DNA of 63,881 nt, counting the filler, from Folioceros fuciformis (Eukaryota): NCBI GenBank assembly GCA_049999805.1. It is 6 parts of 6 records of this genome, joined end to end, with 100 filler letters (N's around TTAATTAATTAA, not from the genome) between each part and the next. Parts side by side here need not be neighbours in the genome. Positions count along the whole stretch, not along the records: positions 1 to 22,378 come from JBNGIO010005873.1; 5 more parts are not named here. One strand, written 5' to 3'. Below the pieces are notes generated by a model. The model searched no databases, was not told the DNA's origin, and saw nothing but the letters and a program-made list of their open reading frames with translations. A program made the position numbers and the translations under genes. This document shows positions 686-63,881 of the stretch, piece by piece (positions within the stretch are counted from its first letter, which is position 1; every line of letters begins with the position of its first letter).

Positions 686-3600
686 ATGACCACTGTATGG
701 CAACCAGACCCGGTGTGGACCCAACAGATAGGTATCGGGGTGCGCACAGGGATTCTATCAGCAGCTCCCGCTCACCAAGACTTAGGAAGTGAACTCCGGG
801 CAGACAAAGCCTCCAGGTGCAGCAGTGGAAGGAACCCAGCGCTTCCAGTCGATAGAACGTGTGTGGGTGGGGACGGGTTGCCCAGCGATGCCCATCGTTG
901 TCGGCAGCAGGAGCACTTGTGGCAACAGTTTTTTCTGGATCCTACCATGTGGTGGGACAACAGACGAGAGAAGAGGAGCTCCCGTTCCCCTGACTTCCGG
1001 CGTAAGGGGTCAGGAGAGGTGCTGTGGTTGAACAACATGTTTAAGCCAGCGTGGGTTGATGAGCAGCTCATGTGCATGGATATGCAGATGGGACATGGTG
1101 CCTCTCCTTCCGAGTCCAGCACTCCGGATAATCCTGAACCTAGGATGTGGGCAACATCGGAAATTGGCATCGTTACTGCTGTTACCGTGAGCACGTTATG
1201 TAAGCAGGGGAGACTTTCTGAGGCCGTTGGAGCCCTGGAATCTCTGTCGCAGACAGCCTCTGCCATTTCCCGATCTCTGCTTTAGACTGTGCTGAAACTG
1301 TGTATAGCAAAGAAGGATTTGGTTGTGGGGCGACGAGTTCATCACCTCAGTGTCAAATTTGGGTTCGAGTCGAATGCGTACTTGGGGAACCACATTGTGC
1401 GCATGTATGCATGTGGAGGTAGGCTAGAGGAGGCCATGGATGTGTTCACCAGAGTAAAGAAACCGGATGCCTTCCTGTGGTCTTCCATAATCTCCGCATA
1501 CGCTAAGCATGGGAAACCGAATGAGGCCGTCCAACTGTACCATGCGATGCGTAGGTCAGGGGTTGAAGCGGATGCCCACGTTTTTGTATCTGCCCTTCAA
1601 GCTTGTGCATTTGCCGGCGATTTGGAATCTGGCAAGAAACTGCACTGTGATGTGGCGCAAAATGGCATGGCTACCAACTTGTTTGTTGGCAACTGCCTGG
1701 TGGACATGTATGGAAAATGTGGCAACATGAAAGATGCACGCCACGTTTTTGACACTATGGCTACAAAGGATGTGGTGACATGGACAGTGCTGATTGCTGG
1801 GTATGCAAAATGTGGCGATCTGGAAGCTGCACGTCAGATATTTGACAGCATGAAGAAAAAGAATGTGGTGACATGGAATGCCCTAATAGCTCGGTATGCC
1901 CAGCAAGGGCTGGGACGTGAGGCGCTTCTTCTGTATGAGCAGATGGAGAAGAAGGGCCTTATCTTGGCTGACCATTTCACTTTTCGTCTCCTTCTGAAGG
2001 CCTGTGCAAGCACGGGTGCCTTCCAGAAGGGCAGGCAGCTGCACTCACAGATTGTGGAAAGGGGTCTGCTGGATGACGTAGTGCCTGGTGGACGTGTATG
2101 CAAAATGTGGTAAACTGGAAGATGCACGCCAGGGATTTAACAGCATGAACAGAAAGGATGTGGTTACATGGACAGCTATGATAGCCGGGTATGCGGAGCA
2201 AGCCCTCAGTCGAGAGGCGCTTGTTCTGTATGGACAAATGGAGGAAGCGGGCCTTATTTTGGCTGATCATGTTACTTTTGCTTGCCTGTTGAAGGCCTGT
2301 GGAAGCACTGGCGCCCTACAGAAGGGCAGGCAGCTGCACTTACAGATTGTGGAGAAAGGACTGCTAGATGACAAAATGGTGGGGACCTGCCTGGTGGACA
2401 TGTATGCAAAATCTGGTGCACTAGAAGATGCACGCCAGGTTTTTGAAAGCTTAGCTACAAAGGATGTGGTGACATGGAACGCCCTGATAACTGGGTATAC
2501 ACAGCAAGGACTCGGCCACGAGGCACTTGCTATTTATGAACAAATGGAGCACGACGTCTTGCTTGTGGCTGACGATGTCACCTTCGCTTGCCTTCTCAAG
2601 GCCTGTGCGAATTCTGGTGCCATACAGAAGGGCAGGCAGCTGCACTCTCAGATTCTCAAAAGAGGATTGCTGGGCAACGTAGTGTTGGGCAACTGCCTCG
2701 TGGACATGTATGCAAAATGTGGCAAACTGGGGGCTGCACGCCAGGTTTTTGGCAGCTTGACCACAAAGAACGTGGTGACGTGGACCGCCCTAATATCTGG
2801 GTATGGTGCTTGTGATGAAGGTCACAAGGCACTAGCTTGTTTTGAAGAGATGTTAGCTGCTGGCGTTCTGCCTAATGAAGCAACGTTAACTTGCCTTTTA
2901 GTAGCATGCAGTCATGGGGGACTGGTCACTGAGGGTCTCAAGTACTTCGATTCCATGGCTGAACAGTATAACATCAAACCTACTATTGAGCATTGCATTT
3001 GCATGATTGACCTTCTTGGGCGTGCAGGCCACTTAGAAGAGGCGGAGAAGATGCTAATTTCATGTGAGGGCCATAATAATGTCGTGGGGTTGACTTCTTT
3101 GTTGAATGCCTGCAAAAGCCACGGGGATATAGACAGGGCGGTGTGGTGTTTTGAAAACATTGTTAGGCTGGATCCTCAAAGGGCGTCTGCCTATGTGCTC
3201 ATGGCCAATGCGTACGCAGACGCAGGTAGGTGGAGTGATGTTGACAGGATTGAAACACAGAGAATAGCAGCAGGAGCTAACAAGAAACCTGCAGTGGCGA
3301 CCATTGAGGTGAACAAGCAGATACATCGATTTCTGGTGGGTGATAAAAGAGAGGATATTGCGCTGAAGGTAGAGAGCACGAATGCTCGTCTGAAGCACGA
3401 AGGGGGCCATGTACCAGAGACGAAGTTGGTGCTGAAGACACTTTCTGAAAAGGGAAAAGGAGGATGGGCTTTGTGGGCATGCTGAGAAGTTAGCTCTGGC
3501 GTTCGGTCTCTTGAACACTCCGAATGGCACACCTCTGGTGGTGACTAAGAATCTACGCATGTGCAGTGACTGCCACAGTTCCACGCAGATCATGTCAAGG

Positions 3601-3687
3601 CTTGAACAGAGAGATATTGTTGTAAGGGATGGGTACCGGGTGCATCGGTTTGCAGCGGGTTCTTGCAGTTGTAAGGGTCGACTGTGA
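686..3687 (+). pseudogene. Disrupted PDF-motif/PLS-PPR/E/DYW:KP (GRP-like) gene
   Basis: Colinear with the intact paralog at 7548-9944. Lesions: in-frame TAG at 1283-1285 (TGC/TAC in paralogs), an ~11-nt deletion near 2083 (frameshift) and a +1 G near 3454 (frameshift just before CGHAEK). The repaired frame ends ...HRFAAGSCSCKGRL* at 3687. Confidence 0.88.
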
Positions 3688-6058
3688 GAATAATGAAGGA
3701 CGGCCGTGCTCAAGTGTGTACCCCAAAGAGTATCGCTTTCTTTTCCTGCGGGTGAATGTGCCGGCTGGAGTTCATCCCTATCCAAGCTGGGACATGGACG
3801 GACAAGCACAGTCCGTGTTTGTTGGCTCATTTGGTGGTGAGGATGCCGTGCTGGACTGGTGTGGCACGGCCCCTACGCTCCTGCTCTCCCATGCGCTTGT
3901 TTATTTCTGAGGTTTCATAGGAGCCTTGGTATCTCGAACCTCAGCTCCCTCTCTGTGGCCTCTCAGGAGATGAGTCAGGTAGCACCTCCCGCATGCTTCT
4001 TTTCCTCCATGCGTGCTCATGTATTTGCTCTTTGTCTGTTTCTTCCACCGCGTCTTCTTCCTTTCTCTGCATGTCTTCCTTCTTCGGGCTCCTCGTCTTC
4101 CCACCTGCTGTCAATGGGGGATGTGGATGTAAGACCAAGCGACAGTGGCAGGAATTTCAGCTACCCGACAAGCAAGCGCAGATTCATCCTTACAGATCTG
4201 CATTCCCAGATAGAAAGTCTCCCTCCCCAGCAATCTACCTCTCTTCCACCATGCTGCTCCTTCTATCACATCAAGGCAGGTTCTGCCTTCTACTACCCAT
4301 CCCCTCTCAACACGTCCCACCTTTGCAGGTTAAACCCCTTTACACCACCAACCCCCTCCCTCTGGTCCCCGCTTAAGACACAACTGCAGATCTGACTCGT
4401 TGCCCTACCCAGCGTATCCTCCCCCTGTCCCGTCTCCCTCACCTACCCTTCTCTTTGCTGAACTCCTCATCCCGCGCTGTAAAGACCCACAAGCCACACC
4501 CTGTTTTTCCGTGTAGATTAACTCATCTTATTTGGATGTTGTGGATGCACGACTTAGGATTTCATGCGTAGCAACGGGGTCTGGGGGATAGAGTACTGTT
4601 GGGTGGGGTGATCATCGCATCCTCAACCGGCCCCAGAGCTCAGAACATTGTAAGAGGCGTTTTGGGTGTGGGCAGTAGAGAGTAAGAAGAATAGGGTCAG
4701 GCATCTTAGCCATACGACACTAAAAAGTCATGCCTGAACCTCTCATTGTTCCGGTGCTTGCTGTAGGTCTCAGCATCTAGAGTGTCAGTGCTGAATCCAT
4801 CAACCTGATGACTGTAAGCTTTCAACTTTTGTGAGATTCAAGTTCACGCTTCTTTAGGAGGCTCCTTCTCTAATTCTGTGGGTGTGTCACTTCGTGCAGG
4901 CAATGTGTGCGTGGGATACCAACAAGATAAGGTGTAACTTGGATTCCTGCTTTCCTCCAGTGGCTGGCATAGTCAGCCGGTGGTCAACTAGTTTGCCGGA
5001 TTGTCTTGCAGCCATGTATGTGCTTCCCCACCTTCTCTCTATCAACGAAGCTTGGTCCAGGATAATGTATACTCATGAGACAGCCAGCCTGCGTCAGAAA
5101 TTCCAGGGCTTCAACCTTCCCAGTAAAGTTCCGTGCCGACACAACGTGTTCATTCATGAGGTAGACCCATCTGTACATCCAAAGAACAGAGATGCTCGTC
5201 CACCCAAGCTGGATTAAACGAGCTGTTTAACCACAGGATCTTCCCGAAGGATGTACACTTGTGAGCAGCAGTTAGGGAGGATTGCGAAGGTTGGTTTCCA
5301 TGATCTATTTTTTAGTGTGCTCTGACTGGTTCTAGGAGTTTCAAAACATTCCTAAGAGGGCTAGTTATGCTGTTTACAGATTGAAGTAATGGGCGAGCTT
5401 TGCCACGAAAGAAGAGAAATGGGCCAAGGGCATGGTATACAAATTGAAGTGATGGACGAGGTTTGCCATGAAAGGAGATGAGAAGTAGATCCGCGAGAAA
5501 TTGATCAGGCCGGTAGGTTTGGACCCAGTCCTTCCCACAGTATCCATTCTCGGGGTTTCTTTCGCCTCCTACATGTCCGCCACTTCCTTGGCCCTATCTG
5601 CCAACTCAACTGCAAGCACACCTCTACTGCGAATCTTCGCTGTCGGGTGGTCTTGAGGGAATTTTCGGGGCATCCTCCGGGCCGGCCTGCCCAATGAAAT
5701 CATATCTCCGAAGTTGGGCACTTGGATGATCAGCATTTGGCGATTGGTATTCGCAGATGCAAGGACCCGGCAACAGGTAGTCTACATTTCCGCAACGTCA
5801 TTAGGCTTAGAAGTTCAAACGCAAAAGAATTTCTACGGTCCATGCCTGGCTACTGCCTATATCAGCCATGGTGGGGAGCGCGTTGTACCGACCCTCCTCT
5901 TCCCTTCCCTGGCTTGACCGTTCCCCTCTCGTAGATTGCACATTTGGAATGACCCTGACAGACACTGTGCGGAGCTCTCGCGTGTTGCAACATGTATCCG
6001 GCGGAGGGAATTCGCAGGAACTGTGAACTTTTCCTAGGCTCGTTTCCTTTCGTTAGAG

Positions 6059-7547: not shown

Positions 7548-9944
7548 ATGGTCACAGTGTGGCTACCGGACACGTTCTGGATCCAACAAATTGGTGTGTG
7601 CACAGGAATTCTACGAGGAAATCTATGTCACTTCACTTCAGCGAGTCAGGCCGTTGCACACAACCGAGCCTCCAGGTATGGCAGTGGAACGAGGGCGGCA
7701 CTACCACTGTCGAGGAGTTTTGTGGGTGGGGACGAGTCTTTCGATGATTCTCGTCGACGGGAGCAGGAGCACTTGTGGCAACAATTTTTCCTAGACCCTA
7801 CCATGTGGTGGGACAACAGACGAGCTCACAAGGGCTCCCGTCCGCCTCATTTCCGGCGGAAGGGTTCCGGCCAGGTACTGTGGTTGAACAACGTGTCTAA
7901 GCCTGCGTGGGTTGATGAGGAGCTCGTTTCCTTGGATACGCAGATGGGTTGTGGTGGTGCTTCTCGTTCGGAGTTGGGCTCTCTGGATAAGCCTGAACCT
8001 GGCAGGCGTGAGGGGTCGGTAGAGGGCGTTGTTACGGGTGGGACTGTGAGCACGTTATGCCAGCAGGGGAAGCTCTCTGAGGCCGTTGGAGCGCTGGAAT
8101 CTCTGGCGCAGACAGACTCTGCTGTTTCTCTGTCTTTGTTGTGCACTGTGCTGAAGCTGTGTACAGCTAAGAAGGATTTGGTTGTGGGGCGGCGGGTTCA
8201 TGATCTCTGTGTCAAGCTTGGGTACGAGTCGAATGCATACTTGGGTAATCATATCTTGCGCATGTATGCAGGTACAGGTAGGCTACGGGAGGCCATGGAT
8301 GTGTTCACCCGGGTAGGCAAGCCAGATGTGATCACGTGGGGTTCCATGATCTTTGCGTATGTTAAGCAGGGGAAACCTGATGACGCCATACAACTGTACC
8401 ATGAGATGCGTAGGTCAGGAGTTCAGGCGAATGGTCACGTCTTCGCAGCTGCGCTACAAGCTTGTGCAGTTGCTGCAGACTTGGAGTCTGGCAGAAAAGT
8501 GCACTGTGATGTGCTGCGCAGTGGTATTCAGTCTGACTTGGTTCTTCACAACTGCCTGGTGGACATGTATGCAAAATGTGGTGAGCTGAAAGTCGCACTC
8601 CAGGTTTTTGACAGCATGGACACAAAGGATGTGGTGACATGGACTGCCCTGATATCTGGGTATGCAAAATGTGGTGCACTGAAAGAAGCTCGCCATCTTT
8701 TTGAAAGCATGGACACGAAGAATGTGGTGACATGGAATGCCTTGATTGCTGGGTACGCAGAGCAAGGACTTGGACACGAGGCGCTTGTTCTGTATGGACA
8801 AATGGAGCAGGAGGGCCTGATTGTGGCTGACCATTTTACTTTTGCTTGCGTTCTGAAGGCCTGTGCAAGCACTGGTGCCGTACAAAAGGGCAGGCAGCTG
8901 CACTCACTGATTGTCGAAAGAGGGCTGCTGGATAACGTGGTGTTGGGCAACTGCCTCGTGGACATGTATGCTAAATGCGGCAATCTGGAAGCTGCAAGGC
9001 GGGTCTTTGACAGCTTGGCCACAAAGGATGTGGTAACCTGGAATGCCCTGATATCTGGGTACGGGACATGTGATGATGGTCTCAGAGCACTAGCTTGTTT
9101 TGAGGAGATGTTAGTTGCTGGCGTTCCGCCTGATGGAACTACTTTTACTTGCCTTCTAGTAGCATGCAGTCACGAGGGACTAATCCAGGAGGGTCGCAAC
9201 TACTTTGATGCCATGGTCGAACAGCATGGCATCAAACCTACTGTTGAGCATTACACCTGCATGATTGATCTTCTTGGGCGTGCAGGCCATTTGGATGAGG
9301 CTGAGAACATGCTATTATCATGCGGAGCCCAAAGTGATGTTGTTGGGTTGACATCTCTGTTGAATGCCTGCAAAAGTCACGGGGATGTAGAGAGGGCAGC
9401 ACGGTGTTTTGAAAACATTGTTAGGCTGGACCCTCAGTGGGCATCTGCCTATGTGCTCATGGCCAATGCCTATGCAGATGCAGGTAGGTGGAGTGATGTT
9501 GACAGGATTGAAACACAGAGAATGGCAGCAGGAGCTAACAAGAAACCTGCCGTGGCGACCATTGAGTTAAATAAGCAGGTACACAGATTTCTAGTGGGAG
9601 AAAGTAGAGACGATATTGCTCTTCAGTTAGAGAGCACGAATGCACGTCTGAAGCAGGAAGGGGGCCATGTACCACAGACAAAGTTGGTGTTGAAGGCACT
9701 GTCTGAGAAGGAAAAGGAGGATGCGCTTTGTGGGCATGCCGAGAAGTTAGCTCTGGCATTTGGTCTCTTGAACACTCCGAGTGGCACACCTCTGGTGGTG
9801 ACCAAGAATCTACGCATGTGCAGTGACTGCCACAGTTCCACACAGATCATGTCAAGGCTTGAACAGAGAGACATTGTTGTAAGGGATGGGTACCGTGTGC
9901 ATCGATTTGCAAATGGTGGTTGTAGTTGCAAGGGTCGACCGTGA
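7548..9944 (+). CDS. Intact PLS-class PPR protein with N-terminal OSB-like PDF motif, E1/E2 and DYW:KP 'GRP' domain (candidate U-to-C RNA editing factor)
   Basis: 798-aa intronless ORF with P-L-S (and SS) repeats. It has KKPAVATIE in place of the PG box, CGHAEKLA, KNLRMCSDCH and a C-terminal CSCKGRP. Confidence 0.93.
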   Translation: MVTVWLPDTFWIQQIGVCTGILRGNLCHFTSASQAVAHNRASRYGSGTRAALPLSRSFVGGDESFDDSRRREQEHLWQQFFLDPTMWWDNRRAHKGSRPPHFRRKGSGQVLWLNNVSKPAWVDEELVSLDTQMGCGGASRSELGSLDKPEPGRREGSVEGVVTGGTVSTLCQQGKLSEAVGALESLAQTDSAVSLSLLCTVLKLCTAKKDLVVGRRVHDLCVKLGYESNAYLGNHILRMYAGTGRLREAMDVFTRVGKPDVITWGSMIFAYVKQGKPDDAIQLYHEMRRSGVQANGHVFAAALQACAVAADLESGRKVHCDVLRSGIQSDLVLHNCLVDMYAKCGELKVALQVFDSMDTKDVVTWTALISGYAKCGALKEARHLFESMDTKNVVTWNALIAGYAEQGLGHEALVLYGQMEQEGLIVADHFTFACVLKACASTGAVQKGRQLHSLIVERGLLDNVVLGNCLVDMYAKCGNLEAARRVFDSLATKDVVTWNALISGYGTCDDGLRALACFEEMLVAGVPPDGTTFTCLLVACSHEGLIQEGRNYFDAMVEQHGIKPTVEHYTCMIDLLGRAGHLDEAENMLLSCGAQSDVVGLTSLLNACKSHGDVERAARCFENIVRLDPQWASAYVLMANAYADAGRWSDVDRIETQRMAAGANKKPAVATIELNKQVHRFLVGESRDDIALQLESTNARLKQEGGHVPQTKLVLKALSEKEKEDALCGHAEKLALAFGLLNTPSGTPLVVTKNLRMCSDCHSSTQIMSRLEQRDIVVRDGYRVHRFANGGCSCKGRP

Positions 9945-22378: not shown

Positions 22379-22478
22379 NNNNNNNNNNNNNNNNNNNNNN
22401 NNNNNNNNNNNNNNNNNNNNNNTTAATTAATTAANNNNNNNNNNNNNNNNNNNNNNNNNNNNNNNNNNNNNNNNNNNN
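22379..22478. other. Artificial contig-join spacer (N-TTAATTAATTAA-N); also at 37087-37186, 52962-53061, 57928-58027, 62672-62771
   Basis: An identical 12-mer with stops in all six frames sits in the middle of N runs five times. Confidence 0.9.
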
Positions 22479-28418: not shown

Positions 28419-31400
28419 TCAGTGTACCTTGAAACCGACTCTTCGCTTGGGTGCCTCCAAGTCCTTCACGGCTTTGGTCAGTCTCCAGAGCTGTGAGTAG
28501 ACGTCGTGGCGGTTTGGGTGGTCTTGGTCTTCCACAAGGAAGCTGTAGACCCTGTAGTCGACCTCAATCCAGGTCCTCCCGGGTGTTTTCTTCAGTCCTG
28601 CAGCCTTCATTTTCCGCCGGATTTCGGCCTCCTCTTCCTGCTTTTCCGCCAGTCCATACAAGCTTGACATGATGACATATGCGGCACTGTTCGTCGGGTC
28701 CAGTTCCATGATGCGCTCAAAAGCGTGCTTTCCCAGCTCCACCTCGAAGTACGTTCGACAAGCGCCCAGCAGTGCCATCCAGACATTGACATCTGGGTTA
28801 GGGACCAGATGGTCGATGAAGTCGGTTGCCACATCCAGGTATCCTGCACGACTGAAAAGTCCTACCATGCATCCGTAGTGGGCTGATGTGGGTTCAACTC
28901 CGTACTCCTTGGACATGGAGTCAAAGAGCTCCCAGCCCTCGGGCAATAGGCCCGCATGGCTGCAGGCGTTCAGCACACACAGGAAAGTGACATGATCCGG
29001 CTTGACGCCTGCCTCCTGCATTTCCTTCAACAGGCGAAGCGCATCTTCACCTGACCCATGCCGGGCATGGCCACCAATGAATGCCGTCCAAGTTACCACA
29101 TCCCTGGTCGGTAGTCCATTGAAGACCCTTAGTGCCACATCCATTCTTCCGCACTCGGCATACATGTTGACAAGTGCGCTTCCTAAGACTTCATCAATTT
29201 CTATGCCACTTTTCTTGAGCAGGCTGTGTGCAAGCATGCCTTGAGAGACAGCTGCGATAACAGTACAAGCCTTAATGATGGTCAAGTACGTCACTTTGTC
29301 TGCCATATTCAAATTCTCTTCTTGCATCTCTGTCCAAACGTCAATAGCCTCCTTATAAAGCTCTTGCTGAACATACCCACGGACAAGGGCATTCCATGAA
29401 ACTGTGTTCTTGTCTGGCAATTTCTCAAAGATTTTGCGAGCCTCATCTAGACTGCCACATTTCGCATACATGTCCATGAGGGTGTTGGCAACAGTCACAT
29501 CCAGTTCAAATCCACTCTCAGCTACCTGCGCATGAATCTCCTTACCCTGATCCAGGCCCCCACCTGTAGCCTTGAGGATGCTCAAAAAAGTCACCTCAGT
29601 TGGCTTGATGCCCTGCTGGAGCATCCTCTGAAAAAACTCCAGGGCTTCTTGCTTGCGCCCGTGCTGAGCATATCCAGCAATTATTGCATTCCATGATACT
29701 GCGTTCTTCTCAGGCATTTGCTCAAACACATTGTTCGCTTCTTCTAAGCTGCCACATTTCGCATACATGTCAATAAGCGTGCTCCCCACCTCTACGTCCA
29801 GGTCATGTCCATTCTCAGTCACCTGGCGATGAATCTGCCTGCCTTCATCCAGCGCACCAATGCTGCTGCAGGCCTTGAGCGCATTGACATACGTAATTTG
29901 GTTCAGCTCAACGCCCTTTTCTTGCATTTCCTTGAACAGTTCTAGAGCTTTGTCGCCCTGCCCATGTTGAGCGTATCCTCCGATCATGGCAGTCCATGAA
30001 ACAACATCCTTGTTTGTCAGCAAGTCAAACGATTCTCTTGCCTCATCCAAGCCCCCACACTTGGCATACATGGCAACAAGAGCGGTACTGATTGCTGAAT
30101 CCAAATCAACTCGACTAGAGATTATCTGAGCATGGATCTCCTTTCCCTGCTCCAAAAACCGAGGGGTATTACAAGCTCTGAGGGTGCTCAGAAACGTGAC
30201 AGCATTTGGTTCCATGCCCTGCTCTTGCAACTCCTGAAATAGCCGGAGAGCTTCTTGGCTCTCCCCCTGTTGCGCGTACCCTCCTATCATTGCATTCCAC
30301 GACACTATGCTTTTCCGATCAAGTTCATCAAACACATCCCTTGCATCGGTCAGGGTCCCACACTTGGAATACATGGATATAAGGCTGTTCCCAATCGCAG
30401 TATCTGTTCCTAGCCCAGAATCAATAATCTGCTGGTGGATCTGCTTCCCTTCTGCCAGAGAGCCTGTATTTGCACAAGACCTCAGAATGCTCAAATACGT
30501 AATCTTGTTCGGTGCTACTCCCTGCCTTTGCATCTCCTTGAAAAGATCCAAAGCTTCCTTATAAAGCCGAAGCTCAGTGTAGCCTGTGATCATCACAGTC
30601 CACGATACCACGTCACGCCTTGACAGTCCATCAAACAGCTTGTGAGCCTCGGCCATGCTGCCGCATTTAGCATACATGTTCATAAGGGCATTCACCACAA
30701 TCTCGTGTGACTCCAACCCCGACTCCGATACGTCCCCATGGACCTCCCGGCCGACATCCAGTGCCGTCGTGCTGGCACAAGCCTTCAGCACAGCCACGTA
30801 AACATGACTGCTCGGGCGAACCCCCGACCGTTTCATCTCCTTGTATAACTCGACTCCCTGCTCCCCTTGCTCAAGGTTAGCATGTGCCGTAATAATCCCG
30901 TACCAAGAATACTCATCCGGCTGGCTGATCTTGCGGAACGCCCTAACCGCATCATCCAAGCTGCCGAGAGATGCATACAACCGGATTAACGTGTTCCACG
31001 CGTAAGACTCCAACTCCAGTCCCCTAGCCGTCACTGTTGACTCCAACAACCTTCCATGAGCTAGACTCTTCCTCTTGAAACACTCCTCCGCCAGCTTAGT
31101 CAAGAGGGAGGCAGGAATGTCTACTCCCAGCTCCCCGATGGTGTCCAACGCATGAAGAGCCTCATTCAACTGCCCTTCCTCCTGCAGCCTGCTCAGATTG
31201 GCAACATGGTCCACGGATTCCACACTACCCTCCAGTTTGGTCACCGCAGACAGAAACCGGATACCATCCCTGCTTCTAGGCAGCTGGCTCCCCCGAGCAG
31301 CTGGATTGCTCCTCCCCTGGACACAGATTTCCCAAGCCGCCCCGGGCTTGGGCGCAGGGCACGGAAATCTGCGACACATGGCCCTTCCAACCCTGGAATT

Positions 31401-31448
31401 TCCAGTCCATCGCGCCGCCGCCGCGAGACGTAACCCTGCTTCCCACAT
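28419..31448 (-). CDS. PLS-class PPR protein, E+ type (PG box, no DYW deaminase), organelle-targeted
   Basis: 1009-aa intronless ORF with an Arg/Ala-rich presequence, many PLS triplets, E1/E2 and KKTPGRTWIEV...DQDHP. It stops before any HxE/CxxC. Confidence 0.93.
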   Translation of the reverse strand: MWEAGLRLAAAARWTGNSRVGRAMCRRFPCPAPKPGAAWEICVQGRSNPAARGSQLPRSRDGIRFLSAVTKLEGSVESVDHVANLSRLQEEGQLNEALHALDTIGELGVDIPASLLTKLAEECFKRKSLAHGRLLESTVTARGLELESYAWNTLIRLYASLGSLDDAVRAFRKISQPDEYSWYGIITAHANLEQGEQGVELYKEMKRSGVRPSSHVYVAVLKACASTTALDVGREVHGDVSESGLESHEIVVNALMNMYAKCGSMAEAHKLFDGLSRRDVVSWTVMITGYTELRLYKEALDLFKEMQRQGVAPNKITYLSILRSCANTGSLAEGKQIHQQIIDSGLGTDTAIGNSLISMYSKCGTLTDARDVFDELDRKSIVSWNAMIGGYAQQGESQEALRLFQELQEQGMEPNAVTFLSTLRACNTPRFLEQGKEIHAQIISSRVDLDSAISTALVAMYAKCGGLDEARESFDLLTNKDVVSWTAMIGGYAQHGQGDKALELFKEMQEKGVELNQITYVNALKACSSIGALDEGRQIHRQVTENGHDLDVEVGSTLIDMYAKCGSLEEANNVFEQMPEKNAVSWNAIIAGYAQHGRKQEALEFFQRMLQQGIKPTEVTFLSILKATGGGLDQGKEIHAQVAESGFELDVTVANTLMDMYAKCGSLDEARKIFEKLPDKNTVSWNALVRGYVQQELYKEAIDVWTEMQEENLNMADKVTYLTIIKACTVIAAVSQGMLAHSLLKKSGIEIDEVLGSALVNMYAECGRMDVALRVFNGLPTRDVVTWTAFIGGHARHGSGEDALRLLKEMQEAGVKPDHVTFLCVLNACSHAGLLPEGWELFDSMSKEYGVEPTSAHYGCMVGLFSRAGYLDVATDFIDHLVPNPDVNVWMALLGACRTYFEVELGKHAFERIMELDPTNSAAYVIMSSLYGLAEKQEEEAEIRRKMKAAGLKKTPGRTWIEVDYRVYSFLVEDQDHPNRHDVYSQLWRLTKAVKDLEAPKRRVGFKVH

Positions 31449-34202: not shown

Positions 34203-37086
34203 TCAGGGCACCGAAAGCTCCGACTCTTTTATCTGCTCAGTTACCTCCTTCAACATGGCATAGATCTGTTTCCTTTGTATGTGGTTCCTGTCTTCCACAG
34301 AAAAAACGTGGACCTCGCTGTGCAGTTCCATCCAGCTGCGACCAGGCTCCTTTTTCGCACCGGCCTTCTGCATTTGTTTTCGAGTCTCAGCAGCTTTCTC
34401 CAACATGCCCGCGGCAGTGTAGATGTTTGACAAGAGAACATATGCTGCACCCGCTGTGCGATCTACCTGCAGAATGGTGTCAAAACATTGTCGTGCAACC
34501 TCCACATTGGTGTATATTTGGCAGGCCCCTAGCAAAGACATCCATACCACAATATCTGGTTGAGATGGAATTTCGCTGATCAAGGCTAAAGCCTCGGCGA
34601 AGTGCCCGGCACGACCAAGGAGGCCAACGATGCAGGCATAATGCTTCATCCCTGGAGCGATTCCAAAATCATGAGACATGGAACGGAATAGTTGGATGCC
34701 CATGTGTAATAAAGATGCGTGCCGACACGCTGAGAGCAGAGAAACAAAGATGACAGCATCTGGCTGCATGCCCTCAGCTTGCATTTGCTGGTATAGTTCA
34801 AGTGCTTCCTCTGCACGTCCATCCTGAGCATATCCTGCAATCATAGTGCTCCACGACACCAATTCTCTGATTGGCAAACTATTGAAGACTTCTCGAGCAT
34901 CTTTCAGACTTCCACACTTTGCATACATGTCAATCAGCGTGCTACTAATAGGCAAGTCTGACTCCAATCCGTACTCGATCACGAGCGCATGAAGCACCTT
35001 ACCCTTGTCCAAAGCTGCAATGCTGCAACAGGCCTTCAGAGTGCTTAGGAGAGTGATCCTGCTTGGCTGCAAGCCCTGTGCTTGCATTTGCTCAAACAGC
35101 AATAGAGCTTCCTGACCATTTCCGCACCGCGCATATCCTGCAATCATGGCAGTCCAAGACGTGACATCTCTTTGTTGCAATCTGTCAAACACTCGGCGTG
35201 CTTCCTCTATCCTGCCACAGTTGGCATAGAAATCAATAAGGGTGCTGCTAATATAGCTGTCCAATGGCATACCACTTTCCTTAAGATAGACATGGAGGCG
35301 TTCACCGTCCAGAAGAGCTGCTTTGTTGGAACATGCTTTGAGGACGCAGGCCACAGTGAACTTGTCTGGCAGCACTTCTTGCTGCATATGCTCAAAAAGA
35401 CGGAGGACTTCCTGGTCATCCCCAGACTGCACATATCCTGAGATCATTGCATTCCATGACACCAAGTTCCTTGTCTCCAACTGATCAAACAAACTCCGAC
35501 CGTCCTCCAGCCGCCCACATTTTACGTACATGTCGAGGAGTGCACATGCAACGAATAAATTTGAATTGAGACCTCCTTCACTGACCTGGGCATGGAGAAG
35601 CTTGCCTAGTTCTAACGCCTCTGTGCAAGCACATGCCTTTAAAAGGATCAAGAAAGTAGCCCTGTTTGGACAATGTCCGCTGCTGAGCATGTCGAAGAAA
35701 AATTGCAGAGCGGACTCAGGTTCACCGTGCTCAACATAACCCCCAAGCAAGACATTCCATGTCACCAAGTCCTTTGTCACCATTCGATCAAATACTTCCC
35801 TGGCATCTTCCAAGCTCCCGCATTTGGCATACATGTCCATGAGAGTGCTGCCTACGAAGACATCACATTCAAGCTGGAGTCTCAATGTGAGTTTATGAAG
35901 CAACCTGCCCTGATCCAGAGCTGTTGCATTCGAACACGCCTTCAGACTGCTGACAATTGTAACCTTGTCTGGCTGCATACCCCCCTGCTGCATTTGCTCA
36001 AGCAAATCAAACACCATTTGACCTTGTCCATATTGCGAGTACCCTGCAATCATTGTATTCCACGTAATCAAATCCTTTTGCAATAAACCGTCAAACACCT
36101 GACGAGCATCCTCCAAGCTTCCACACTTGACATACATATTTATCAGAGTGCTACAGACATGTGCATCCACTTCACGACCAGTCTTAACAATCTGAGCATG
36201 TAGCACTTTGCCCTGATCCAGAGCTGCAATACAAGAGCATGCTTTCAAAGTGCTGGCAAGGGTTACCTTGTCTGGCTCCATACCTTCCACCTGCATCTGT
36301 TGAAACAGTTCCAATGCTTCATGGCCCCATCCATGTTGCCCATACCCTGCAGTCATGATATTCCATGATACCAGATCCTTTATCGCCATTGTGTCAAACA
36401 CGGTTTGTGCATCCCCTAGCCTTCCACATTTTACATACATGTCCATGAGAGCATTCCCAACAAACACTTTCAACTGTAGCCCTCGATCTACAATGTCCGC
36501 ATGAATTGACTTGCCCCACGTCAGAGCTGCAGCTCTTGCACATGCTTTGAGTATAGCCACATAAACTTGGTCATCAGGATTTATGCCAGCTTTTGTCATG
36601 TCAAAGTACAGCAGAACAGCTTGTTCAGCTGAACTATGCTTGCTGTGTGCCAGGACGATGGCAGTCCACGCAAATTTGTCTGGGGTGGCAATCTTGCTGA
36701 ACACTTTACTTGCTTCCCATAGTTCTCTGCAGGAATCGTACATTCGAATTAGATGGCTTCCCAAGTACGGATCAGATTCAAGTCCAGTTTCCTCTATGAT
36801 AGCATGCACTTCCCTGCCAGCTGTCAAGTTTTTCAAGTGAATACAACCCTGTAACAGACGAAACAACAGATTGACGGGAATCGAGATCCTTTGCTGGTGC
36901 AATGCGACCAAACTTCGCAAGGATTTCTCCAGTTCCCCCTCGTCACCAAATCCACCGAAACGTTTCCAAAATTGCGAAGAGCCAACAAAGCCTTCAATGC
37001 TTCCACCCTGGCAAACCCCGGATACCACCTGATTCTGCTTAATGACGGTACCGTCTCCATTCCCTGATGAGACTACAGGACTTGCT
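34203..37086 (-). CDS. PLS-class PPR protein, E+ type (PG box, no DYW); 5' end runs into the gap
   Basis: The frame is open from the gap at 37087 through >940 codons of PLS repeats and E1/E2 to KKEPGRSWMEL...EDRNH; no zinc-binding motifs. Confidence 0.92.
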
Positions 37087-58888: not shown

Positions 58889-61633
58889 ATGGCCACTGTA
58901 TGGCAACCGGACCTGTCGGGGACCCAACAAATTGGAATTGCTGGGTGTCCAAGGACTCTACCAGGAACCCCCGCTCACCTCAGCGTCGGGAGTGAACCCT
59001 TTGCAAACAAAGGCTCCAGGTGCAGCAGTGTCAGGAGCCCAGCACTTGCACCTCCGAGAACGAGAACGTGTGTGGGCAGGGACGGGTTTTCCGCCGATGC
59101 TGGTAGTTGCCAGGAGCAGCAGGAGCACTTGTGGCAACAACTTTTTCTGGACCCGACCATGTGGTGGGACAATAGACGAGACAAGAAGAGCTCCCGTTCC
59201 CCTCACTTCCGGCGTAAGGGATCCGGCGAGGTGCTGTGGTTGGACAACAGGTTTAAGCCAGCTTGGGTTGATGAGCAGCTCGTCTCCTTGGATATGCAGA
59301 TGGGTCTCGGTTCCTCTGCTTCCAACTTGAGCTCTCCAGATGATCCTGAACCTGGAAGGCGTACAGGTGGTGAATTGGGCTCCAGGGTCAGCAGTGTAAG
59401 AAACCCAGCACTTCCACATCCAATGGACCATGGAGTCTCTTCTTTCGAGTGCAGCTCTCTGTATAAGCGTGGATCTGGCAGGCGTGCAGAATTGGAAACG
59501 GGCGTCGTAACTGCTGCAACCGTGAGCATGTTATGTCATCAGGGGAAGCTTTCTGAGGCCGCTGCAGCCCTGGAATCTCTGGTGCAGTCAGATTCTGGCG
59601 TTTCTCAGTCTCCGTTTTACACAGTGTTAAAACACTGTACGGCCAAGAAGGATATGGCGGTGGGGCGACGAGTTCATGATCTCACAGTCAAACTTGGGTA
59701 CGAGTCGAATGCATATTTGGGGAACCATATCTTGCGCATGTATGCATGTGGAGGAAGGCTAAAGGAGGCGATGGATGTGTTCAACAGGGTAGGGAAACCG
59801 AATGTTTTCATGTGGTTTTCCATAATCTCTGCACATGCTAAGCACGGGAAGCCGAAGGCGGCCATACAACTGTACCATGAAATGCGTAGGTCAGAAGTGA
59901 AGGCGGATGGTTATGTCTTTGTAGCTGCCCTTCAAGCTTGTGCATTTGCTGGCGACTTAGAATCTGGCAGAACAGTGCACCGCGACGCGTTGCGCAGTGG
60001 CTTCCGGACTGACGTGTTTGTTAACAGCTGCTTGGTGGACATGTACGGAAAATGTGGCCGAATGAAAGATACACGCCAGGTTTTTGATAGCATGAACACG
60101 AAGACTGTGGCGACATGGAATGCCCTGATCGCTGGGTATGCACAGCAAGGACTCGGCCAAGAGGCACTTGTCGTGTATGGACAATTGGAGGAGGCGGGCC
60201 TCGTGGTGGCTGACTGTGTTACTTTTGCCTGCCTTCTGAAGGCGTGTGCAAGGACTGGTGCCTTGCAGAAGGGCAGGGAGCTGCATTCACAGATTGTGAA
60301 CAGAGGTCTGCTGGATAATATAGTGGTGGGAAACTGCCTGGTGGACATGTATGCAAAATGTGGTGAGCTGGAATATGCACGCCAGGTTTTTGACAGCATG
60401 GACACGAAGGATGTGGCGACATGGACGGCCCTGATCGCTGGATATTCACAGCAAGGACTCGGCCAAGAGGCGCTTGTTGTATCTGCACAAATGGAGGAGG
60501 CGGGCCTCGTTTTTGCTGACCGTGTTACTTTTGGTTGCCTTTTGAAGGCGTGTGGAAGCACTGATGCCTTGCAAAAGGGCAGGGAGCTGCACTCACAGAT
60601 TGTCAACAGAGGTGTGCTGGATGATGTAGTGGTGGGAAACTGCCTGGTGGACATGTATGCAAAATGTGGTGAGCTGGAAGATGCCCGCCAGGTTTTCGAC
60701 GGCATGGCGTCGAAGGATGTGGTGACATGGACAGCCATGATCGGTGGGTATGCACAGCAAGGACTCGGTGAAGTGGCGCTTGTTGTGTATGAACAGATGG
60801 AGGAGGCAGGCCTCGTTTTGGCTAATGATGTTACTTTTGCTTGCCTTCTGAAGGCGTGTGCAAGCACTGGTGCCTTGCAGGACGGCAGGAAGCTGCACTC
60901 ACAGATTGTCGAAAGAGATCTGCTGGATAATGTAGTGGTGGGAACCTGCCTGGTGGACATGTATGCAAAATGTGGTGAGGTGGAATATGCAAGCCAGCTC
61001 TTTGACGGGATGGACACGAAGGATGTGGTGACATGGAATGCCCTGATTGCTGGGTATGCACAGCAAGGACTCGGCCAAGAGGCCCTTGTTGTGTATGGAC
61101 AGATGGAGCAGGCAGGCCTCGTATTGGCTGACTGTGTTACTTTTGGTTGCCTTCTGAAGGCGTGTGGAAGCACTGGTGCGTTGCAGACGGGCAGGGAGCT
61201 GCACTCACAGATTGTCAACAGACGTGTGCTGGATGATGTAGTGGTGGGAAACTGCCTGGTGGACATGTATGCAAAATGTGGGGAGCTGGAAGATGCCCGC
61301 CAGGTTTTCGACGGCATGGCCTCGAAGGATGTGGTGACATGGACAGCCATGATCGCTGGGTATGCACATCAAGGACTCGGCGGAGAGGCGCTTGTTGTGT
61401 ATGGACAGATGGAGCAGGCAGGCCTCGTTTTGGCTAATGATGTTACTTTTGGTCTGTTGAACACTCCGAATGGGACACCTCTGATCGTAACGAAGAATCT
61501 ACGCATGTGCAGTGACTGCCACAGCTCCACGGCGATCATGTCGAGGCTTGAGCAGAGAGACATTGTTGTGAGGGATGGGTACCGTGTGCATCGATTCGCA
61601 AATGGTTGTTGCAGTTGTAGGGGTCGACCATGA
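58889..61633 (+). CDS. PDF-motif/PLS-PPR protein with in-frame deletion of E1/E2 and the first half of the DYW:KP domain (ends CSCRGRP)
   Basis: 914-aa ORF. An L motif ANDVTF is fused directly to the DYW segment GLLNTPNGTPLIVTKNLRMCSDCH...RGRP. KP box and HAE are absent. Confidence 0.88.
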   Translation: MATVWQPDLSGTQQIGIAGCPRTLPGTPAHLSVGSEPFANKGSRCSSVRSPALAPPRTRTCVGRDGFSADAGSCQEQQEHLWQQLFLDPTMWWDNRRDKKSSRSPHFRRKGSGEVLWLDNRFKPAWVDEQLVSLDMQMGLGSSASNLSSPDDPEPGRRTGGELGSRVSSVRNPALPHPMDHGVSSFECSSLYKRGSGRRAELETGVVTAATVSMLCHQGKLSEAAAALESLVQSDSGVSQSPFYTVLKHCTAKKDMAVGRRVHDLTVKLGYESNAYLGNHILRMYACGGRLKEAMDVFNRVGKPNVFMWFSIISAHAKHGKPKAAIQLYHEMRRSEVKADGYVFVAALQACAFAGDLESGRTVHRDALRSGFRTDVFVNSCLVDMYGKCGRMKDTRQVFDSMNTKTVATWNALIAGYAQQGLGQEALVVYGQLEEAGLVVADCVTFACLLKACARTGALQKGRELHSQIVNRGLLDNIVVGNCLVDMYAKCGELEYARQVFDSMDTKDVATWTALIAGYSQQGLGQEALVVSAQMEEAGLVFADRVTFGCLLKACGSTDALQKGRELHSQIVNRGVLDDVVVGNCLVDMYAKCGELEDARQVFDGMASKDVVTWTAMIGGYAQQGLGEVALVVYEQMEEAGLVLANDVTFACLLKACASTGALQDGRKLHSQIVERDLLDNVVVGTCLVDMYAKCGEVEYASQLFDGMDTKDVVTWNALIAGYAQQGLGQEALVVYGQMEQAGLVLADCVTFGCLLKACGSTGALQTGRELHSQIVNRRVLDDVVVGNCLVDMYAKCGELEDARQVFDGMASKDVVTWTAMIAGYAHQGLGGEALVVYGQMEQAGLVLANDVTFGLLNTPNGTPLIVTKNLRMCSDCHSSTAIMSRLEQRDIVVRDGYRVHRFANGCCSCRGRP

Positions 61634-62671: not shown

Positions 62672-62771
62672 NNNNNNNNNNNNNNNNNNNNNNNNNNNNN
62701 NNNNNNNNNNNNNNNTTAATTAATTAANNNNNNNNNNNNNNNNNNNNNNNNNNNNNNNNNNNNNNNNNNNN

Positions 62772-63881
62772 CATTTTGGGGAGTCAACTCTCATGGCAAG
62801 GATTGTTTATATCAGTGGAGATTCTTACCATTTGGATTAAAGAATGCTCCAGCTGAGTTTCAGCGAGTCATGGATAGGATTCTCGCAGGATTGGATTTCG
62901 CCCGTTGTTACATTGATGACATTCTGGTGTTCAGTGCTACAGTGGAGGAGCATCAGAGGCATTTACAGGTTGTGTTTGAGCGGTTGACAGCTCATGGGCT
63001 AAAATTACATCCGGGGAAGTGTAAGTTCTTTCATGACCAGATTGAGTACTTAGGACACACCATCTACCCAGGTGGGTTGGGTGTTCAGCAGAGTAAGGTT
63101 GAGGCCATTGCACGTATTCCGCGCCCTTCAGATGTGAGCCGAGTCCGAGCATTCTTAGGATTGGCGAACTTCTATCGACGTTATGTGAAAGGGTTTAGCG
63201 CGATTGCAAAGGCACTCACCAAGTTAACTAAGTTGGATCAGGAGTGGCAGTGGGGAGATGAGCAGGAGAGAGCTTTTCAGGAGCTCAAGGATAGATTGAC
63301 ATCTGCACCCATCTTGAGGAGACCGATTAGGGGGCGTCCTTTTGAGTTACACACTGATTGGAGTATGTTGGGGATTGGAGCAGTGTTGACACAGAGAGAT
63401 GATGATGAGAGGGAGTTTGTGGTGGCATTTGCGAGCCGCTCNNNNNNNNNNNNNNNNNNNNNNNNNNNNNNNNNNNNNNNNNNNNNNNNNNNNNNNNNNN
63501 NNNNNNNNNNNNNNNNNNNNNNNNNNNNNNNNNNNNNNNNNAGTTTGGGCCGTGGCACATTTCAGATGCTATTTGTTTGGTAACCCTTTCACTCTGGTCA
63601 CGGATCACCAACCACTGAAGTGGTTGATGGAGTCAGAGAAGCTCACAGGGAAGCTTGCTCGTTGGGCTCTGATTTTACAAGAGTATGACTTTCAAGTAGT
63701 GCATCGACCTGGAGTAGTTAATCGTGATGCGGATGGTTTGAGCCGTAACCCATGTGAGAGTCAGGAGGATGTGACTGGCGCTCGATGGCATGATGAGGCA
63801 GATTTGGAGATGGTTCCTGGTTGGCATGCATCTACTTTCTTAGGGATGCTAGCTATGGACTCTAGTATGGAGTTTGGCGAT
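62772..63881 (+). mobile_element. Ty3/gypsy retrotransposon pol fragment (reverse transcriptase + RNase H), apparently young
   Basis: YQWRFLPFGLKNAPAEFQRVMD...CYIDDILVFS...YLGHTI...FLGLANFYRRYV...LHTDWS...VAFASR...TDHQPLKWL...ARWALILQEYDF...ADGLSR; no stops seen in the 237-aa ORF (62870-63583). Confidence 0.95.

Follow-up and report, generated by a model that had tools for sequence, protein, structure and literature searches.

Introduction

Editing factors of the PPR-DYW type are usually seen as proteins of two parts, with a tract of pentatricopeptide repeats (PPRs) that recognizes the target and a DYW domain that catalyzes the reaction. On its RNA, a PPR tract has its N-terminal repeats toward the 5′ side, and in seed plants the MORF/RIP proteins act as trans-acting helpers that raise the RNA binding of PLS-type PPR proteins. 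Here, we analyze a stretch of 63,881 nucleotides of DNA from Folioceros fuciformis (GenBank assembly GCA_049999805.1), the whole of which we call the window, and focus on a Trp-rich block of about 50 residues that stands before the PPR tract in three of its PPR genes. [quoted passage not shown]

Two sets of described proteins stand close to those of the window. First, the PDF motif is described as a 50-residue unit, named for its Pro-Asp-Phe triplet, that follows an OB-like domain once or several times and is responsible for the binding of single-stranded DNA (ssDNA) (PMC6963530, PMC6451138, PMC4166229). The motif is reported as sufficient for, or responsible for, this activity in OSBs (PMC6963530, PMC6451138), and having one more PDF is reported to correlate with the need for a longer ssDNA (PMC6451138). 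Second, the hornwort GRP proteins with a DYW:KP domain are defined by a Lys-Pro that replaces the Pro-Gly at the start of the domain, HAE in the HxE motif, Lys88, a length of 132–133 residues and a terminal GRP (PMC9478123, PMC11845758). The proteins of the window join a unit of the first set to a body of the second.

The Block Is a Homologue of the OSB PDF Motif

The three PDF-bearing genes are all of the GRP type and lie on the + strand. Gene 2 (7548..9944, +), a single open reading frame (ORF) of 798 residues encoding PDF, PLS-PPR, E and DYW:KP (GRP) regions, is the only intact member of the three, and its block at 7773..7925 (+) occupies residues 76–126, ahead of the PPR tract. The blocks of gene 1 and gene 3 lie at 917..1069 (+) and 59129..59281 (+), respectively. 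The translations match exactly the Trp-rich block that the initial annotation had quoted, with the canonical PDF triplet in gene 1 and a PHF variant in genes 2 and 3. A six-frame hmmsearch across the whole window with the block profile recovered the three full copies with E-values of 1e-37 to 1e-39, and a PDF profile matched those of genes 2 and 3 with E-values of 8e-20 and 3.5e-21, respectively. The same six-frame search gave no block match better than E 4 in the two E+ PPR genes (28419-31448 and 34203-37028), in line with the annotation. Its statement that all three long GRP-type genes have the block stands as regards the block; as genes, however, gene 1 is broken and gene 3 has suffered a deletion.

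The identification of the block with the OSB PDF motif, also proposed in the initial annotation, is borne out by both pairwise and profile comparisons. In BLASTP, the 51-residue block of gene 1 matched the two PDF repeats of a Populus nigra “protein OSB1, mitochondrial-like” with 53% (E 2e-16) and 47% (E 7e-14) identity, and a legume “protein OSB3, chloroplastic/mitochondrial-like” with 46% identity (E 7e-13), so that the block shares 46–53% identity with named OSB1/OSB3-like proteins. A profile built from the three window copies was then used in an exhaustive hmmsearch of 1.84 billion representative proteins, in which 544 proteins matched with E ≤ 1e-3, with 105 reaching ≤1e-10 and 15 reaching ≤1e-30. 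The OSB layout dominates these matches: among the best 150 of the 544, 138 are free of PPRs and contain 1–12 copies, mostly C-terminal in proteins of 250–500 residues. The Populus nigra OSB1-like protein (P0038) was recovered here with two copies at E 7.9e-20. Several of the OSB-like matches carry the Pfam SSB domain PF00436, and the match of the Populus nigra protein to this family is weak (E 1.3e-4, below the cut-off).

The agreement extends to the conserved positions. The block has 51 columns, which fits the ~50-residue PDF motif with its conserved Trp, Phe, Pro and basic columns, and the OSB and PPR-borne copies, whose consensus strings agree, have in common the invariant or near-invariant W, F, P, WWDNR, K, PDF, K, LW, P and W. 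The window proteins share with Arabidopsis OSB1-4 and their orthologues the signature W..FF..P..WWDNR..K....PDF.HK..G..LWL....P.WV, and tandem arrays of PDF units are found in both OSBs and PDF-PPR proteins. A Pfam scan found no family that covers the block, searches by word index with the block region of gene 2 yielded no candidates among proteins of shorter or similar length, and the ESM Atlas gave no usable match to it.

In other respects, the window proteins differ from OSBs. PDF-PPR proteins are without the OB-fold/SSB-like domain, and Pfam finds no SSB family in the proteins of genes 2 and 3; their PDF unit is N-terminal, while that of OSBs is C-terminal; the remainder of the protein consists of the PLS-PPR tract, E motifs and DYW domain; and two of the copies read PHF. 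Hence, in the absence of an OB-like domain and with an N-terminal PDF unit, the window proteins are not members of the OSB family, though, as the annotation had supposed, they carry an additional module that in OSBs is reported to bind ssDNA (PMC6963530, PMC6451138, PMC4166229).

The survey of PDF units also brought up some unusual proteins. A 534-residue protein with seven PDF copies (P0017) is a EukProt entry under the dinoflagellate Cladocopium sp.; PDF motifs are said to be confined to green plants (PMC4166229), and this entry could reflect transfer, a contaminant or a wider distribution. A 1160-residue protein from the seed plant Kingdonia has 12–13 copies. Gene models from Striga and Coptis join three PDFs to regions annotated as a ROP-interactor or a kinesin and may be merged gene models.

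The PDF–PPR Fusion Is Widespread in Non-Seed Land Plants

PPR repeats are present in 12 of the best 150 of the 544 matches to the three-copy profile, always behind the PDF unit. One of these 12 (P0135) has a DYW domain with a GRP end. The named PDF-PPR proteins recovered in this search come from the ferns Adiantum and Ceratopteris, from transcript ORFs of Pteridium and from the lycophyte Selaginella. The fern and Selaginella proteins that we examined (P0087, P0092, P0129/P0174 and P0121) stop inside the E motif or shortly behind it, have no DYW domain, and therefore, if they are editing factors, would need a deaminase supplied in trans.

A second search, in which a profile of 15 PPR-borne PDF units was compared with longer proteins within the reach of a word index, returned 76 proteins at E ≤ 0.001. 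Of these, 48 have Pfam PPR families, and 14 of the 48 also have PF14432. Clusters from the lycophyte Diphasiastrum complanatum account for 28 of the 48; its PPR proteins (P0177-P0183) display one to three tandem PDF units before the PPR tract, spaced as in the multi-PDF OSBs. The search further extended the fusion to Sphagnum, Ceratodon purpureus and the liverwort Calypogeia fissa. All PDF+PPR proteins listed have their 1–3 PDF copies on the N-terminal side of the PPR tract. Among the matches listed, all named PDF-PPR proteins are from non-seed land plants, and the named seed-plant matches are OSB-like.

We considered whether the block might be a separate upstream gene; this was ruled out, as the uninterrupted ORFs of genes 2 and 3, and the fern transcript ORFs, read from the block into the PPR tract in one frame.

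The catalytic regions attached to these proteins are of more than one kind. Complete canonical DYW:PG domains are present on 12 PDF-PPR proteins, from Diphasiastrum, Sphagnum, Ceratodon, Calypogeia and one JGI record. Their C-termini show the PG-box region (…PGxSWIE in most), HSE in 11 of 12, CxDCH and a terminal DYW in all 12, where the window proteins have KKPAVATIE, HAE and GRP. Mosses and liverworts are reported to lie outside the clades that hold DYW:KP (PMC13386178, PMC9478123). Since the PDF unit also occurs on DYW:PG proteins and on PLS proteins that have no DYW domain, it does not single out U-to-C editors, and the tie to DYW:KP and U-to-C editing that the initial annotation had implied has to be given up: the same fusion is found on the 12 DYW:PG proteins and on the DYW-less proteins of ferns and Selaginella.

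Thus, judged from the protein sequences, the fusion has been kept across at least five major land-plant lineages, and it is old and general across non-seed land plants, where it is seen with PLS proteins of the DYW:PG, DYW:KP and DYW-less kinds. Trees built on the 51-column PDF domain do not settle whether there were one or several fusion events (domains covering fewer than 40 profile positions in the first tree and 42 in the second, and 6 duplicates, were dropped). In the first, with 314 domains, 13 of 18 PPR-borne units group with 4 others in a clade with a support of 0.944. In the second, with 452 unique domains, 65 of 81 PPR-borne units fall in another clade (support 0.93) that leaves the window copies outside, and a group of hornwort-type and fern units has a support of only 0.59.

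Selection on the Block and Its Predicted Fold

The initial annotation also held that conservation is higher in the block than in the linker that flanks it, and the comparison of the three genes upholds this. Aligned at their N-termini, the three proteins agree in 39 of the 51 block columns, whereas variation is far greater, and indels occur, in the presequence and in the linker that follows the block. Ratios of nonsynonymous to synonymous substitution rates (dN/dS), computed by the Nei–Gojobori method region by region for the three gene pairs, are 0.16–0.20 in the block, 0.61–0.66 in the presequence and 0.38–1.11 in the linker with the first PPR, with dS alike across the regions (0.25–0.66). 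The block is under purifying selection. In a wider alignment of 46 sequences, the columns D, R, P, F, W and W are invariant, and W, F, P, WW, N, K, D, K, L and P are nearly so.

Further copies of the block appear to exist in and beyond the window. A stop-to-stop frame at 5150..5311 (−), between genes 1 and 2, encodes the C-terminal half of a PDF block and its linker (…ILWLNSSFNPAWVDEHLCSLDVQMG…); it matches block profile positions 22–51 with E 5e-8 and continues into a “…SLDVQMG” linker. No PPR tract is found behind it, and a fourth paralogue is its probable source. Contigs from sequencing runs with at least 90% likeness cover positions 7790 and 7793 in numbers of 27–38 from two runs labelled organism A, 113–115 from the run labelled organism B and 87–88 from the run labelled organism C. 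These contigs are short pieces rather than genes, fragmented by the repeated PPR family, and none spans gene 2; their pile-up over the start of the block fits a block repeated in many paralogues of related genomes and lends weak support to its being a family-wide feature.

AlphaFold2 predicts for the block alone a helix, three short strands and a helix (H-E-E-E-H), with a predicted local distance difference test score (pLDDT) of 88.2 and a predicted template modelling score of 0.74. The input for this model was the same set of 46 sequences, namely, the 3 window copies and 43 of 48 single-copy matches, with 5 of more than 420 residues left out. The same elements are present in a full-length model of gene 2, for which 25 PDF-PPR proteins were aligned and which has a mean pLDDT of 81.3. 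This model outlines the anatomy of the protein as follows: a presequence (residues 1–65; 7548..7742, +) with pLDDT <50 that is predicted to be disordered and presumed to be an organelle-targeting peptide; a folded PDF unit at about residues 63–132 (7734-7943, +); a flexible linker from the PDF unit to the PPR tract (residues 136–160; 7953..8027, +), again with pLDDT <50 and with indels among the paralogues; the PLS-type PPR tract with E motifs at residues about 164–661 (8037..9530, +), recognized by a confidently modelled solenoid of helix pairs, the Pfam PPR families and E_motif; and the DYW domain. The PDF unit is accordingly predicted to be a bead that folds independently, with disordered segments on either side, namely, the presequence and the linker. 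Among solved structures, neither fold nor sequence searches retrieved a relative of the unit.

Gene 2 Encodes a PLS-Class PPR Protein with a DYW:KP Domain

In gene 2, Pfam detects PPR_2 (1.7e-66), PPR (5.9e-66), E_motif (2.7e-14, residues 611–673) and DYW_deaminase (1.9e-33), and the tandem PPR motifs followed by E motifs, modelled as a solenoid of helix pairs, place it in the PLS class. The deaminase-like DYW:KP domain (9543..9941, +), delimited by residue count, alignment against PG-type domains and Pfam, is 133 residues long and has K1-P2, H65-A66-E67, K88, M92, CxDCH and a C-terminal GRP, in agreement with the published definition of DYW:KP/GRP proteins (PMC9478123, PMC11845758).

What the PDF Unit Might Do

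The reading that we prefer, which we hold to be evenly balanced between right and wrong, is that the PDF unit is an accessory module for single-stranded nucleic acid beside the PPR footprint, aiding the capture of the target RNA. As the N-terminal PPR repeats bind the 5′ side of the RNA, a tethered PDF unit would sit just upstream of the sequence-specific footprint of the tract. There, it could add a sequence-independent affinity for single-stranded nucleic acid, and this added affinity might help the factor to capture or hold unstructured target RNA. The unit would then be a cis-acting helper outside the catalytic chemistry. It is not needed for catalysis as such, since the designer GRP editors KP2 and KP3, which are free of PDF, still edit U-to-C, with reported levels of ~26% and ~22%, respectively, in E. 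coli (PMC9478123).

Several observations weigh against this proposal. First, two of the three window genes are damaged, and recent duplication could explain part of the conservation seen among them, a concern tempered by dS values that are not small. Second, His replaces the Asp of the PDF triplet in gene 3 and in gene 2, the sole intact gene. This column is Asp in 418 of 437 domains (77 of 81 PPR-borne and 341 of 356 OSB-like), and His is found there in just 2 of the 437, those of genes 2 and 3. The block of gene 2 departs from the consensus at a second near-invariant column (Lys) as well, and both departures speak against a binding role of any kind for this gene. Third, the absence of the fusion from seed-plant PPR proteins rests on partial sampling, namely, the best 150 of 544 matches and the second survey limited by its word index. 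Fourth, recombinant OSB1 and OSB2 are reported to favour ssDNA over double-stranded DNA or RNA (PMC4166229), which argues against an RNA ligand.

This last point leads to the main rival explanation, that the PDF unit keeps the ssDNA preference of the OSBs and anchors the factor to organelle ssDNA, such as transcription bubbles, R-loops or replication and recombination intermediates, so that editing would take place beside nascent transcripts. It is favoured, besides the reported preference of OSB1 and OSB2, by the finding that the PDF alone is enough for ssDNA binding in OSB1 (PMC6963530), by the retention of nearly all the conserved OSB PDF columns in the PPR-borne copies, and by the arrays of 2–3 PDFs with OSB-like spacing before the PPR tract in Diphasiastrum. 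However, a single PDF copy, as in the window genes, may bind weakly, and the sequence offers no means of telling a preference for DNA from one for RNA. We regard such tethering to the nucleoid as unlikely.

Less probable still is that the unit serves for protein docking or oligomerization, recruiting partners (editing factors, a DYW protein acting in trans, or proteins of the OSB or RecA type) or associating with itself, with no binding of nucleic acid. The DYW-less PDF-PPR proteins of ferns and Selaginella, which would need a partner deaminase, might fit such a role, as might the reported tetramer of AtOSB2, though the paper does not assign tetramerization to the PDF (PMC6963530). Against this, ssDNA binding is the only function reported for the motif, and the unit is also carried by DYW-bearing proteins that need no partner. 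On this balance, a docking role appears improbable.

We consider it quite improbable that the unit has no present function, being either an inherited leftover or a segment removed along with the transit peptide. The location of two of the three window copies in damaged genes, the relic fragment and the rare PHF variant of the intact gene 2 would sit well with decay. However, dN/dS is 0.16–0.20 in the block versus 0.38–1.11 in its flanks, the fold is confidently predicted, and at least five major lineages of land plants have retained the unit on the N-terminal side of their PPR tracts. Finally, the idea that the PDF unit is a specific adaptation of U-to-C (DYW:KP) editors, for instance for holding the RNA during a slow crosslink-based amination, draws on the block being present in all three GRP-type genes of the window and in the further GRP-ending protein P0135 but absent from both E+ genes, and is scarcely tenable, being contradicted as a general statement by the 12 PDF-PPR proteins with a PG-type DYW, by the reported placement of mosses and liverworts outside the DYW:KP clades (PMC13386178, PMC9478123) and by designer GRP editors that are reported to function without a PDF unit (PMC9478123).

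Comparison with Other Editing Systems

The hornwort GRP DYW:KP proteins and the designer editors KP2 and KP3 resemble gene 2 in their 133-residue DYW:KP domain, with its K-P, HAE, K88, M92 and GRP end (PMC9478123, PMC11845758). The designer proteins differ in that their PLS tract is synthetic, a thioredoxin/His tag stands at the N-terminus, and they were built without the PDF unit that the natural genes of the window carry. Of DYW:KP proteins of the GRP subgroup, U-to-C activity is reported only for these designer KP2 and KP3 (PMC9478123).

Between the PDF unit and MORF/RIP, a functional analogy is conceivable, in that both might be accessory aids to PLS-type editing factors. There is no kinship in sequence or fold, and MORF acts in trans on the PPR tract, whereas the PDF unit is fused in cis. 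MORFs are reported to be restricted to seed plants (PMC13386178), and the complementary distribution of MORFs in seed plants versus the named PDF-PPR fusions in non-seed plants is suggestive only. A bolder view, which we think unlikely, is that the PDF unit is an ancestral cis helper of PLS editing factors across non-seed land plants, providing a sequence-independent grip on single-stranded nucleic acid beside the PPR footprint, which seed plants dispensed with as the trans-acting MORFs took over. If true, designer editors of both the C-to-U and the U-to-C kind should become more efficient, with no need of MORFs, once natural PDF units are grafted onto them.

A parallel in architecture is offered by the RRM-PPR and RRM-DYW fusions, in which a nucleic-acid-binding domain is likewise joined to a PPR protein (PMC13386178). 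The survey that reports them differs in its coverage, as it counts fusions whose partners are the hallmark domains PPR, MORF, ORRM and OZ; in the main text of this 2026 kingdom-wide study of editing-factor fusions, “OSB” and “PDF” occur 0 times (PMC13386178). A full-text literature search of main articles found no paper linking PDF or OSB with PPR, DYW or PLS proteins, the sole co-mention of OSB with DYW/PLS being a localization table. The PDF-PPR fusion was probably missed because Pfam lacks a model for PDF and because the selection applied in a 2026 survey of OSBs, which is reported to have retained only proteins with both OB-like and PDF domains (PMC13393729), would discard PPR fusions. Thus, the parts (PDF motif, PLS-PPR and DYW:KP) are known, and their combined architecture appears undescribed so far, though an earlier remark on an N-terminal signature may exist.

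These findings have implications on several fronts. With a third conserved module, predicted to be folded, on many hornwort-type, moss, liverwort, lycophyte and fern factors, the minimal two-part picture of PPR-DYW proteins falls short in those lineages that edit most heavily. The PDF motif in turn gains a second context besides genome maintenance. Further, the unit is a candidate for a simple add-on to programmable editors, of which the GRP-type ones are reported to edit only about a quarter of targets in E. coli (PMC9478123).

The Damaged Paralogues and Their Surroundings

Gene 1 (686..3684, +), delineated from the ORF list, the sequence and tblastn with the gene 2 protein, is a broken paralogue with an in-frame TAG at 1286-1288 and changes of frame near 2085-2110 and 3448-3458; the tblastn match runs through frames 2, 3 and 1 across the gene, which is frameshifted ahead of the DYW:KP domain. 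It is either a pseudogene or affected by assembly errors. Gene 3 (58889..61633, +) is an open paralogue of 914 residues, as seen from its translation, Pfam matches and alignment, with an internal deletion that has removed P2-E2 and the first ~72 residues of DYW:KP, including the KP box and HAE, and fused an L-type PPR motif straight onto the middle of the DYW:KP domain. Its Pfam DYW match is correspondingly restricted to profile positions 31–91. With P2-E2, the KP box and HAE deleted, the protein in its present form cannot be a deaminase.

The window is plant nuclear DNA. Along with its five PLS-class PPR genes, the three PDF-bearing ones and the two of the E+ type known from their translations, it contains genes for a class-I fructose-bisphosphate aldolase and for PRONE and PADRE proteins. 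It is interrupted by 14 runs of N (e.g., 22379-22478 and 62672-62771), and a fragment of a retroelement with reverse transcriptase and RNase H lies just downstream of gene 3, at 62870-63583 (+).

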